In this document: piece by piece, positions 2,968 through 40,559 of the stretch
How the letters are laid out: each line of letters starts with the position of its first letter
Numbering within the stretch: position 1 is the first letter of the stretch
IMG/VR virus record: IMGVR_UViG_3300021420_000014
DNA length: 64,000 nt
Direction: 5' to 3' (one strand)
Source: a virus
The notes under the pieces: generated by a model
Told to the model about the DNA's origin: nothing
Database searches by the model: none
Seen by the model: the letters and a program-made list of their open reading frames with translations, nothing else
Program-made: the position numbers and the translations under genes

Positions 2968-3624
2968 TTGCAGATAACGGAGATGTTCGAAATGGCAGCC
3001 AAAAACGCAAATGATTCATTGCTCTCTGACATTGATTTTGAGCCCATCGAGGATATTAAGCCGGACAGAAACAATCCCAACAGGCATACGCCGCGCGGCA
3101 AAAAACTTTTGAAGTCTTCACTCAAAAAGTTTGGGGCCGGCCGATCGATATTGCTCGATGCTGAGAATCGCGTGATCTCCGGGAATGCCACCTTTGAGCA
3201 GGCCAGACAGTTGGGCTACAAAAAAGTCATGGTGGTGGACTCTGATGGCGATACGCTGGTTGCCGTACGTCGGAAAGATCTCAATCTTGAAGGTGACGAC
3301 AAGAAGGCTAGAGAACTGGCAGCCCATGACAACAGAGTTGGGCAGGTTGACCTGGAATGGGACACCGACATCTTGAAGAGTACGGACGTCGACCTAACGG
3401 AACTATTTGAACCAATCGAGTTGGACAATCTTCTGAACGACGGCAAGGGCAGAAAGCGAATCGACAAAATCGATCTGCAGCCTCCTCCCAAGATGATTTG
3501 GATCCTTTTGGGCGTTCCATTCAATCGTTTCGATGAAATTCAGCCACACTATCAGGCACTCGAAGCTATCAGCGATATCAGTGTTCAGCAGGCAAGGAAC
3601 GCAGAGGAAGAAAAGAAATCTTGA
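2968..3624 (+). CDS. ParB/Srx N-terminal domain protein
   Basis: IKPDRNNPNRH, SLKKFG, ISGNAT, DNRVGQ; start uncertain. Confidence 0.75.
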   Translation: MQITEMFEMAAKNANDSLLSDIDFEPIEDIKPDRNNPNRHTPRGKKLLKSSLKKFGAGRSILLDAENRVISGNATFEQARQLGYKKVMVVDSDGDTLVAVRRKDLNLEGDDKKARELAAHDNRVGQVDLEWDTDILKSTDVDLTELFEPIELDNLLNDGKGRKRIDKIDLQPPPKMIWILLGVPFNRFDEIQPHYQALEAISDISVQQARNAEEEKKS

Positions 3625-17910: not shown

Positions 17911-18982
17911 TCGGGCAGGTGATTTGGTACTTTGTGGCTGACCGCGTTGAACAATTGGCTTGCGCTTGCAATCGCGATCTAATTGACGAGGATGACTTGC
18001 AAAGTGAGCTTCGGGATGTTCGGCACGATATACGGCTAGTTGATCGCCGCGTCGATGAACTTGAGGGCGAAGTATAGATGGTCCAAACGCTGTTCGGCAC
18101 AATTGAGAACAAGGCCGAGGCCCGGGAGCGCGCCCAAAAGATGGCCGAGCTATATGACGCGCTGCGTGAGGCTCCGGAAGCACTCGATTGCCGACGGGTA
18201 CAGATTGGGGACCTGACTTACTTCATCGAACGCAGCAACGCTTGCAAGCTGGACTTAAACGACCATGATGGCCTGCATCGCCTGATTGGAGATCCAGAAG
18301 AATTAATAACGGCTCGCGACTGCGCCTTCATGCGCCGACACAAACGCTGGTGGCGTAAAACACCAAAAGGCTACCTGGGATATTCAGCTGCGATCTATTG
18401 CGCGACACTTCACCCAAAGGAAATCAAGTATCTCGAAGATCAACGGATATGGATTCAGGACGAGATTGACTCAATCGAAACAAATGTCCCGATCATTCGC
18501 GAACAGGTAAAAGCTTTGAAGGCTGTAGCACCACTGCCGGAAGATATTGCCAAACGGCACGGCCTGACTGTAGATGGCGATCCACTGAAACCAATCGAGG
18601 AGAAAGCAAAATGTTAAGATTTGGGACCCAATCAATCGACATAGGAAAGCTGACCGAAGATGAAACCGCGGACCTGTTCATAGCTGCGGCTAAATCCCTT
18701 AGAGAAGAAAGGCTGTTGGAGTCGTTCGATCTGATTCTGACCACAAAGCAAAAAGAAGAGTTGGGCGAGACATGGTTCAACATCGATTCTGGACCACGAT
18801 GAAGCGCCAATGCCGATTCTGTAAAGAACGGACTGGCGCGATCACTTGTTTTCGTATTCCGACAAGAAATAGCAATCCTTTTATTTATGCTCACGAAAAA
18901 TGCTTCCGGCAATGGCTTGAGGCTTGCTTAGCCAAACTTGAACAACGGTAGCCTGCCGAGAAAAGGCAAAGGGAGAATAAAA

Positions 18983-39318: not shown

Positions 39319-39983
39319 GTGTCCTCGCTGTCGTGACTGCTAAGGATGCGAGGCGGTAGGCTGGCCGCCTCTCGATGACTATAACTATAAACGCATTAGG
39401 AGCACACAGGGCGATAATTCCGCGTAGGCTATCTTTGAGCGATGAAGGAATTTCGTGATCATGCAGCAAGGCCGCCTCGACAGCCTTCGGGCATCCGGAG
39501 ATCCTCACGTCTGTAATCATCAGGTGTTCCCTCAGCTCAGGATCAGATGGATATTGTATGAGTGCACCGCGAAGATACCATTGAACGGCTAGGTGTCAAT
39601 AAATTTCGCCTTGTGTGCGCTATCGAACTGATCCGCGCACTGCCCACGACTACCACCAATTACCACGGAATAATTTTTATTCGTATTGGAAACAAAGAAG
39701 TTCCTATAGTGACTACCGTTGATTACCGGGAGGTGGCATGAGCAAAACAGAGTGGCAACCGGCACGCTGCGTCATAGTTCACGGAAACGTGGCACTACGG
39801 GAAAGATTAGCCGATGAAAAGGATCCAGATTGGCGAATAAAGATTTATCGTGTACGGCTGAACACGACTGGCGTAGTGAACCAGCATTGCGATGGGCGGC
39901 TCTTGGATATCCATCCCGATGATGCGCCGCCTGGCTATTACTGGGCTTGTGAGCACGAAATGCTGACCGACTGAGGCGTTAAG

Positions 39984-40057
39984 TGGAGCGTCTGACGGGA
40001 GTTGAACCCGTGCCCCTCGGACTAGAAGCCGAGTGCTCTACGCTGAGCTACAGACGC
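39984..40057 (-). tRNA. atypical tRNA with 8-nt anticodon loop CUUCUAGU
   Basis: GCGTCTG/CAGACGC acceptor, GCTC/GAGC D-stem, CTCGG/CCGAG anticodon stem, ACGGG-TTCAACT-CCCGT T-arm, T-CCA end. Confidence 0.85.
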
Positions 40058-40521
40058 TCTGAAAGTGGCGCAGGGGCTCGGATTGAACCGTAGTCGTCGA
40101 TATCAGGCGACGCCCCTGCATTGGCGCGCCCGGCGAGATTCGAACTCGCTCCGTCTGCTTTAGGGGCAGCCGTGCTTGCCGTTGTCACTACGGGCGCGCG
40201 GTAAACTCGATAGCACTGCAACAGCTCGCGCTCGGGCGAATCTGCATCGAGCGGTGCGGTTGCAATGGCAGTCAATCCGAAATCGTGATCAGGTTCGTAC
40301 CATGGATAGTGAGGGATTCCGTGTGCTTGAAGCTTTCGCAATACGCGCTCAAGTGCTCGGACGTTCGGCATCCCGATAGCAACGAGATTCGGCGTGCCTG
40401 GATCGCCACGGAGTTGCGCAAGCTTGAAGCTTGAGTGGTTAGTTTGTACGAGAATGTGTTCAAAAGCAGGAAGGTCGGTCCGGAAGAACAAATAACGGTA
40501 TTGCTCTTGTACCTATGTCAT
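40048..40521 (-). CDS. Pth2-like peptidyl-tRNA hydrolase with in-frame TAG at codon 3
   Basis: MT*VQEQYRYLFFRTDL..QTNH..LVAI..WYEPD..GLTAIATAP. Confidence 0.7.
40066..40119 (-). ncRNA. D-armless tRNA-like RNA (54 nt)
   Basis: GCAGGGG/CCCCTGC-G-CCA, GTCGCC-TGATATC-GACGAC hairpin, CGG-TTCAAT-CCG T-like arm. Confidence 0.7.
40122..40197 (-). tRNA. putative amber suppressor tRNA (anticodon CUA)
   Basis: GCGCCCG/CGGGCGC-G-CCA; CTGC-CCCTAAA-GCAG with central CTA at 40163-40161; GCGAG-TTCGAAT-CTCGC. Confidence 0.85.
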
Positions 40522-40531
40522 AGCGACTTTG

Positions 40532-40559
40532 ATTCTACTTGATGGCAATCCTAAGTCAA
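40532..40559 (-). promoter_or_regulatory. sigma70-type promoter of pth/tRNA unit
   Basis: TTGACT-N16-TAGAAT, 10 nt upstream of ATG (near-leaderless). Confidence 0.6.

Follow-up and report, generated by a model that had tools for sequence, protein, structure and literature searches.

A Pth2-fold gene behind a conserved early amber codon in a soil phage: a candidate translational gate read by phage CUA tRNAs

How can a gene be expressed when its reading frame meets a stop at the third codon? This question is raised by a Pth2-like gene of the virus record IMGVR_UViG_3300021420_000014, of which a stretch of 64,000 nucleotides (nt), referred to below as the window, was analyzed. The window represents 64 kb of a 164,879-bp soil-phage contig and is phage DNA by its genes, among them those for a large terminase, a DnaB-like helicase, a ParB-like nuclease and DNA methyltransferases. 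The gene opens with ATG ACA TAG and is followed on the same strand by a tRNA with a CUA anticodon; the original prediction for this locus had described it as a peptidyl-tRNA hydrolase (Pth) gene translated only upon amber read-through. Our analysis establishes the anatomy of the locus, its conservation, the fold of its product, the structure of its tRNAs and the purifying selection on the encoded domain. It favors, at a probability of about 0.7, the reading that the Pth2-fold gene is translated only when the phage's own CUA tRNA decodes the gate UAG, i.e., a translational AND gate. Amber-suppressor tRNAs are common in large phages with the standard code, and we know of nobody who has explained why. 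The present locus would offer such suppressors a concrete and conserved target, namely a small tRNA-hydrolase-like gene that is apparently untranslatable without a CUA tRNA.

Conservation of the early TAG

The elements of the cassette all lie on the minus strand, in the order gate, 104-codon Pth2-fold domain, tRNA1 (CUA) and tRNA2 (8-nt anticodon loop) on the transcript:

40532..40559, minus strand: strong sigma-70-like promoter, with -35 box TTGACT (40559-40554), 16-nt spacer and -10 box TAGAAT (40537-40532); 10 of 12 consensus positions matched
40513..40521, minus strand: start codon ATG (40521-40519), Thr codon ACA and gate TAG (40515-40513), in frame with the domain
40201..40512, minus strand: Pth2-fold domain of 104 codons (VQEQYRYLFFRTDLP...CYRVY), identified by AlphaFold2, structure search and dN/dS
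40122..40197, minus strand: tRNA1, anticodon CUA (ARAGORN); loop CC-CUA-AA with C33, G73 and encoded CCA
39984..40057, minus strand: tRNA2, 8-nt anticodon loop CUUCUAGU (ARAGORN, anticodon called 'tcta'); U73 and encoded CCA
40048..40200, minus strand: tail of the open frame, running through tRNA1 and the spacer to TAG 40050-40048 inside tRNA2

The promoter, the ATG ACA TAG and the in-frame continuation past it (GTA CAA GAG CAA TAC CGT TAT TTG TTC TTC CGG) were all found where the original prediction had placed them. The ATG sits 10 nt 3' of the -10 box and has no Shine-Dalgarno (SD) sequence, so the mRNA of the window is probably leaderless or nearly so; we infer the position of its transcription start from the promoter match. 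As had also been claimed, the ATG before the TAG is the only start codon ahead of the first strand of the fold, since no ATG, GTG or TTG occurs between the gate TAG and the TTG at 40491, which already lies inside that strand.

Related loci were drawn from metagenomes, viral contigs and GenBank phages, giving 38 distinct loci whose proteins are 30-85% identical to that of the window. All 38 have TAG, and none TAA or TGA, as the first in-frame stop on the 5' side of the conserved first strand, a uniformity that chance would by no means produce. The set includes five cultured phages (ME3, GAP32, fHe-Yen9-04, Arash and RsoM2USA), and the hosts of the cultured gated phages belong to Acinetobacter, Salmonella, Cronobacter, Yersinia and Ralstonia. 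The original prediction had named a conserved early TAG and linked suppressor tRNAs in homologous loci as features to look for, and both were found (38/38 and 32/38, respectively); a sequencing error or a mutation private to the window is ruled out by the 38 loci, cultured phages included. The TAG could still be thought of as a nonsense mutation or error in a decaying or misassembled gene, the region serving as the 5' leader of a tRNA precursor, and in the window the TAG is indeed followed by GTA, the downstream TGA has been lost and tRNA2 is irregular. Nevertheless, the recurrence of the same TAG in independent loci, finished cultured-phage genomes among them, together with a dN/dS of 0.05 and a confident fold prediction, makes such decay or artefact barely credible.

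The 5' side of the gate also has the character of coding sequence. Its start codon is ATG, except for GTG in L064, and is separated from the TAG by one sense codon in 33 loci and by two to four in the other 5, so that TAG is always codon 3-6. The single intervening codon specifies Thr in 23 of the 33 loci (ACA 13, ACC 5, ACG 4, ACT 1), and the variation of its third base represents a coding signature rather than that of a DNA motif. Most related loci show TTGACA, about 17 nt, a -10-like box and then ATG after 6-10 nt, while a GGAG-type SD stands 5-11 nt before the ATG in L006, L014, L017, L018, L065, RsoM2USA, fHe-Yen9-04 and Arash. Judging from these signals, the ATG upstream of the TAG is the predicted real start.

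Initiation downstream of the TAG was considered in two forms. Use of TTG 40491 as the true start finds no support, because relatives carry GTT, CTG or CTC at this position and the product would lose two nearly invariant tyrosines of strand 1. In the second form, termination followed by reinitiation, the Met-Thr-stop frame would be a loading device for a leaderless mRNA, ribosomes would restart at the next codon with no suppressor and the CUA tRNAs would merely be co-transcribed. The codon right after the TAG is indeed ATG in seven loci and GTG in one (L001, L002, L006, L018, L036, L037, L040 and L058), and the near-cognate AUU, AUC and AUA make up most of the remaining cases. In 30 of the 38 loci, however, this codon is non-canonical as a start (ATT, ATC, ATA, AAC, AAT, GAA or GTA), and in nearly all of these 30 no canonical start (ATG, GTG or TTG) precedes the conserved strand. 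Codons that would not initiate follow the TAG in the window and L064 (GTA, where ATN is usual), L065 (GAA), L049 and Arash (AAC) and GAP32 (AAT). Furthermore, any stop codon would serve reinitiation, yet TAG is invariant, and the link to CUA tRNAs would be left unexplained. We thus regard reinitiation as unlikely.

The context of the gate differs from that of ordinary stops: the +4 base is A in 34 loci, G in 4 and a pyrimidine in none, as opposed to a pyrimidine in 13 of 22 genuine TAG terminators of the window. In Escherichia coli a 3' purine favors amber suppression and a 3' U favors release factor 1 (RF1). The domain behind the gate is under strong purifying selection, with a ratio of nonsynonymous to synonymous substitution rates (dN/dS) of 0.057 against L002 and 0.047 against L003, comparisons in which synonymous sites are saturated. 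A dN/dS of about 0.05 indicates that the domain is translated. The invariant TAG, the placement of the start, the scarcity of alternative starts and this selection combined argue that the protein is made and that translation must pass the UAG.

Regarding public annotation, the Pth2-like gene is unannotated or called from an internal start in JN882285 (GAP32), LT960551 (fHe-Yen9-04), KU935715 (ME3), OQ632216 (Arash) and MG752970 (RsoM2USA), and the matching region of Serratia phage BF likewise carries no annotation or a shortened one. Gene callers appear to miss or shorten the gene because of the early TAG.

Linked tRNAs and the open frame

The original prediction of a same-strand CUA tRNA holds for tRNA1; tRNA2 departs from an ordinary CUA tRNA, as its 8-nt loop includes both CUA and UCUA. 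In the class of tRNA1 the cloverleaf is kept, 17 of 21 pairs show compensatory (double) changes and the CUA is invariant. Positions 1 and 72 are paired as G-C or A-U in each of the 12 members compared, which identifies the class as elongator and not initiator tRNAs. An initiator-like CUA tRNA that would start translation at the UAG itself was rejected on this ground and because the spacing of the SDs fits the upstream ATG.

Of the 38 gated loci, 32 have a CUA tRNA in the same locus or genome, mostly directly 3' on the same strand; it is lacking in L014 and L018 and in contigs that break off no more than about 60 nt from the gene. All five cultured phages encode exactly one CUA tRNA:

ME3: CUA tRNA 0.4 kb upstream of the gated gene
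Arash: CUA tRNA 1 kb downstream, labeled tRNA-Phe in GenBank
GAP32: CUA tRNA 2.8 kb downstream, not among the annotated features seen
fHe-Yen9-04: CUA tRNA 3.1 kb downstream
RsoM2USA: CUA tRNA 13 kb from the gated gene

The CUA tRNA of L006 (3872-3975), whose variable region is enlarged by a 31-nt insertion, escaped ARAGORN and was detected by Infernal at 59 bits; a weak tRNA-like match (26 bits) was also seen in L006 right after the gene (3337-3403).

This distribution bears on who opens the gate. A host-state sensor, in which low RF1 activity or a host suppressor and not the phage tRNA would mainly allow read-through, is conceivable in that RF1 competes at an early UAG with any near-cognate or suppressor tRNA, and a few short loci (L014, L018) show no CUA tRNA. 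A phage CUA tRNA is nonetheless found wherever the sequence suffices, usually on the same transcript, and the purine at +4 fits tRNA suppression; we consider such a sensor slightly less probable still than reinitiation.

Several finer features of the tRNAs were examined. C33 of tRNA1 recurs in L019, L020 and phage ME3. A fourth pair between tRNA position 33 and the +4 base (C33 and +4 G in the window) was rejected for want of co-variation, the combinations of +4 base and position 33 being A/U 26, A/C 3, G/U 3 and G/C 1. The 8-nt loop of tRNA2 occurs also in L010/L029 (CCUCUAGU; L010 3528-3602) with compensatory stem changes, and because this contig is independent, the loop is not a private error. 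In L010 the 8-nt-loop tRNA is the sole suppressor-like tRNA near the gate, and the CUA loops of the tRNA2 orthologues in L001, L004 and L035 are of the regular 7-nt size. The 8-nt-loop tRNA may read UAG, UAGA or AGA. The sequence UAGA stands at 34 of the 38 gates; its reading as a quadruplet would shift the ribosome out of the domain frame. A search for anticodon loops by a 7-base pattern was uninformative.

The identity of the inserted amino acid was sought in the N-termini of relatives. Reading of UAG as Gln, suggested by relatives beginning 'MTQ...', was rejected, since the Q of P0012 is a TAG called under code 15; P0015 and P0024 were likewise set aside as evidence for Gln because the ATG from which each is called comes after an ATG-NNN-TAG of its own.

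As to the origin of the suppressors, a canonical Arg(UCU) tRNA occupies the tRNA1 position of the ungated L011 (L011/L033 3371-3445) and is 81% identical to the CUA tRNA of L035 (619-693); the loops of the Arg(UCU) and CUA tRNAs are one base out of register (UUUCUAA vs. CUCUAAA). The L018 tRNA at 3442-3516 has the loop UAUCUAA, with A at position 33. The comparison suggests that the amber suppressors of this clade may have arisen from tRNA-Arg(UCU), perhaps by way of a form with the 8-nt loop.

The original prediction had missed the irregularity of tRNA2 as well as the fact that the coding frame has no stop before tRNA1 and ends inside tRNA2. tRNA1 begins 4 nt past the last domain codon, and in the window clade generally the tRNA starts within a few bases of that codon or overlaps the end of the domain. 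No stop precedes the first downstream tRNA in 15 loci (the window, L001-L005, L008, L012, L017, L019, L020, L026, L028, L035 and L037), and one is present in 4. In L001 and L002 the frame ends at a TGA about 18 nt after the CCA of tRNA1. The window is one base shorter than L001 after tRNA1, so that the usual TGA is thrown out of frame, which argues that its tail is free of constraint at the protein level; the apparent conservation of the tail in relatives is that of a tRNA gene read as protein. Public gene calls thus carry a 'conserved' tail of 25-50 amino acids that is a translated tRNA gene. Given that no stop lies between domain and tRNA, a non-stop mRNA would result from cleavage by RNase P, and a ribosome past the gate would translate on through the tRNA; translation and maturation of the tRNA may in this way disturb one another. 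In L026 (89-3607) the gated gene is surrounded by an array of 11 tRNA genes, and the open frame of the gene crosses tRNA-Lys and the CUA tRNA before a stop.

The far end of the transcription unit could be marked by a hairpin located about 115 nt 3' of tRNA2 and within the convergent plus-strand open reading frame (ORF) 39738-39974:

39847..39868, minus strand: weak terminator-like hairpin of 7 pairs, 3 of them G-C, assigned by consensus match alone

Ungated members of the family also exist. The RaK2 relative has a plain ATG start, L011 has no TAG gate, and in XacN1 ORF364 and several metagenomic members the domain is fused behind a long N-terminal extension. Several of the ungated members keep a CUA tRNA within 2 kb, which hints at a functional tie between protein and tRNA beyond the gate. 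With regard to co-variation of stop codon and anticodon, the only TGA case is L061 (2231-2510), which combines a UCA (opal) tRNA located 281 nt upstream with a 62-codon Cys-rich ORF ending in ATG GAA TCG TGA, followed by GTG TTG GAT and the domain. It is ambiguous, as the TGA ends the 62-codon ORF and a GTG follows, and could be an opal-gated fusion or plain translational coupling. Atu_ph07, which carries an opal suppressor, gave no match to the Pth2-like family, and scans with a very diverse alignment and with a distant subfamily produced no usable pattern.

TAG use in the window and the Pth2-fold product

A gate at a single gene presupposes that TAG still stops translation elsewhere. As the original prediction had stated, TAG remains in use as a terminator, ending 23 of 117 crude window genes (about 20%), and no long ORF of the window requires TAG read-through. 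Four in-frame TAG junctions (18075, 26929, 42522 and 59455) all have independent starts or signal peptides. Read-through fusions at 18075, 26929 and 59455 were rejected, two having SDs placed for the downstream ATG and one a 30-nt spacer, and PHROG matches at these three do not cross the TAG. At 42522 the TAG splits a signal-peptide protein from a lipoprotein, each with its own signal.

These findings bear on genome-wide reassignment of TAG (code 15), under which the Pth2-like gene would be one of many with an in-frame TAG. TAG-recoded phages typically encode a CUA tRNA (Borges et al., bioRxiv 10.1101/2021.08.26.457843), and the evidence covers 64 kb of a 165-kb contig. The window has the CUA tRNA expected of such phages; many in-frame TAGs and the loss of TAG as a terminator were not found there. 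Moreover, a reassigned codon would not stay at one position in 38 diverged loci. Reassignment is therefore very improbable, and the share of genes ending in TAG argues for a single-gene gate.

The layout of the gate also appears unique within the window once a candidate at 43065 is set aside. The pattern of ATG, up to 5 codons, TAG and at least 80 open codons was matched three times: the Pth2-like gene, an 88-codon frame at 3216-3218 (minus strand) that is antisense within the longer ORF 2968-3624, and a site at 43065-43067 (ATG AAG GAA TAG, 180 codons, TAG, 113 codons). The last was rejected as a second gated gene, since the true start is Met 43028 with a signal peptide and the frame past TAG 42522 opens with its own lipoprotein signal. 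The region 42177-43028 (minus strand) thus encodes two neighboring secreted proteins split by a TAG, a signal-peptide protein (MKPILLSVLLFSMSAFAYA) and a lipoprotein (…LALSLGC), neither of which has a PHROG match.

Concerning the product, the AlphaFold2 model built from a 23-relative alignment reached a pLDDT (predicted local distance difference test) of 94.7 and a pTM (predicted template modeling score) of 0.88. In a VIA-align search of about 48,000 representative chains, independent of Foldseek, the sole matches with Z >5 were 1wn2 (Pth2 of P. horikoshii; Z 13.1, root-mean-square deviation 2.2 over 103 of 104 residues) and 2gax (Atu0240/DUF2000; Z 11.1). Foldseek ranks 1-13 were all Pth2 enzymes, human Bit1 among them. 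A profile search of PDB sequences gave a weak match to 24bt_A, 'peptidyl-tRNA hydrolase' (E 0.014), in which the R-T-D-L and V-Q-S-x-H-A motifs of the phage family pair with those of Pth2. R11, D13, Q23, H26, D75 and T85 are invariant or nearly so among relatives. In PHROGs the single match was PHROG 34073, of unknown function. The family comprises 2,426 representatives at E ≤ 0.001, many of whose gene calls are truncated at the N-terminus.

On this modeling the Pth2 fold is firmly assigned; that the protein belongs to the Pth2 enzyme family itself is not established. The chances appear about even that the protein is an esterase acting on tRNA-linked substrates, i.e., peptidyl-, N-acyl-aminoacyl- or aminoacyl-tRNA.

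Proposed mechanism and known systems

In the favored reading, one promoter would give a transcript that carries a near-leaderless ATG, a Thr codon, UAG, the Pth2-fold coding region and two UAG-reading tRNAs. Ribosomes would initiate at the ATG and reach the UAG at codon 3. As long as no charged suppressor is at hand, they would terminate there, or fMet-Thr-tRNA would be lost, and no protein would be made. Once the phage CUA tRNA had been processed and charged by a host synthetase, the UAG would be read as an amino acid and the protein would follow. Because the output needs both mRNA and tRNA, the response would be delayed and leak-free, and the putative esterase would be supplied only during active stop-codon suppression. 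Read-through, the inserted amino acid, enzyme activity and the purpose of the gate are what we infer from these data.

A number of observations weigh against this translational AND gate. First, some gated relatives could bypass the gate by reinitiation, in view of the 8 of 38 with ATG or GTG after the TAG. Second, any phage suppressor efficient enough to let ribosomes through the gate would likewise cause extension of the roughly 20% of phage genes with a terminal TAG. Third, the nearest sense tRNAs gave no consistent answer as to the inserted amino acid, being of mixed types at 65-81% identity. Fourth, GTA after the TAG, the 1-nt loss that removes the TGA and the 8-nt loop of tRNA2 could mean that the window copy is in decay; against this, L064 has GTA as well, L010 shares the 8-nt loop and dN/dS is low. 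As regards the enzyme, a Pfam scan with E up to 10 matched no family, PTH2 (PF01981) included. Catalysis by Pth2 is ascribed to a Lys in the G-K motif together with a conserved Asp, and that Lys aligns to His, Gln or Asp in the phage family, an alignment that comes from the weak profile match. Finally, transcription, tRNA processing, charging and read-through are here predictions from the nucleotide sequence. The original prediction stands in part: the Pth2 fold, the early TAG that translation must pass and the co-transcribed CUA tRNA in a phage that terminates genes with TAG are supported, and hydrolase activity, given the missing PTH2 match and the replaced Lys, is not established, nor are the minigene role discussed below and an opening of the gate by limiting RF1.

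A more elaborate and rather doubtful version is that of a homeostat for stop-codon suppression, a counterpart of prfB at the level of the tRNA. The UAG at codon 3 would gauge charged suppressor, and the Pth2-like enzyme would deacylate suppressor tRNA or clear peptidyl-tRNAs made by suppression. In the window clade, ribosomes passing the gate would enter the tRNA gene and block its folding and RNase P processing, so that suppression would throttle its own tRNA, with the 8-nt-loop tRNA as a second, distinct UAG reader.

Since the design occurs in laboratory-grown phages, the idea of the gate is directly testable. If true, it would represent a translational switch that occurs in nature and is operated by a tRNA; it might also be a step in the evolution of complete stop-codon reassignment, and it would provide synthetic gene circuits with a compact part of natural origin.

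Among known systems, the protein itself is closest to Pth2 (PF01981) and Atu0240/DUF2000, with which it shares the alpha/beta fold across the whole domain (Z 13.1 and 11.1) and the motifs R-x-D-L, Q-x-x-H-A and an acidic residue followed by T-A-I-A-T-x-P. It differs from this group by the lack of a Pfam match, the replacement of the G-K Lys by His, Gln or Asp, a shorter loop past the acidic motif and its occurrence in phages.

The lambda bar minigenes have the form AUG-AUA-stop, and such two-codon frames promote drop-off of peptidyl-tRNA, the type of product that Pth hydrolyses. The original prediction had proposed that a Met-Thr minigene of this kind is translated when the gate is closed. In both systems a phage transcript has a frame of two codons at its 5' end; bar is free-standing, however, whereas the present mini-frame is in frame with a conserved domain at every locus and holds two to four sense codons in five of them. 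Here, in addition, the second codon is not fixed, the stop is always UAG and suppressor tRNAs are linked. A role similar to that of bar is not established, as the mini-frame is always in frame with the domain.

The gene for release factor 2, prfB, is likewise a translation-factor gene with an early in-frame stop (UGA), whose synthesis reports the decoding of that stop. In contrast to the continuous frame and the tRNA putatively sensed here, prfB uses a +1 frameshift and senses its own product; nothing in the present sequence would suggest product feedback on UAG decoding of the prfB style.

An engineered counterpart is the synthetic 'leak dampener', a suppressor-tRNA coherent feed-forward loop in E. 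coli (Ho et al., 2020; PMC7969014). In it, a suppressor tRNA and an mRNA bearing a nonsense codon are under the control of a single input, and no protein appears unless both are present. The leak dampener relies on separate promoters and a ribozyme, whereas the phage cassette is natural, is carried on one transcript and has an ORF that enters the tRNA.

Full-text literature searches found no paper tying a Pth2-like gene to phage suppressor tRNAs. The papers on XacN1 and RsoM2USA reported CUA tRNAs with no target gene identified (PMC5852040; PMC8504454), and the recoding literature deals with many-gene reassignment and not with a single fixed gate (Borges et al., bioRxiv 10.1101/2021.08.26.457843). 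Code-15 phages (TAG to Gln; crAss-like, Lak and others) carry their own suppressor tRNAs (Borges et al., bioRxiv 10.1101/2021.08.26.457843; Peters et al., PMC9523058). As in the present case, a phage CUA tRNA permits a gene with an in-frame TAG in a standard-code host, and control of timing by suppression has been proposed there. In those phages numerous late, structural and lysis genes contain scattered TAGs, and TAG no longer serves as a terminator. In the present phage, in contrast, TAG ends about 20% of genes, and one small translation-related gene is gated at a fixed codon 3-6, on the transcript of the tRNA. The locus would thus present a known principle, read-through by a phage suppressor, as a single-gene translational gate in a standard-code phage, and what is new in it is the ORF that has no stop before the tRNA and the 8-nt anticodon loop that recurs in L010.

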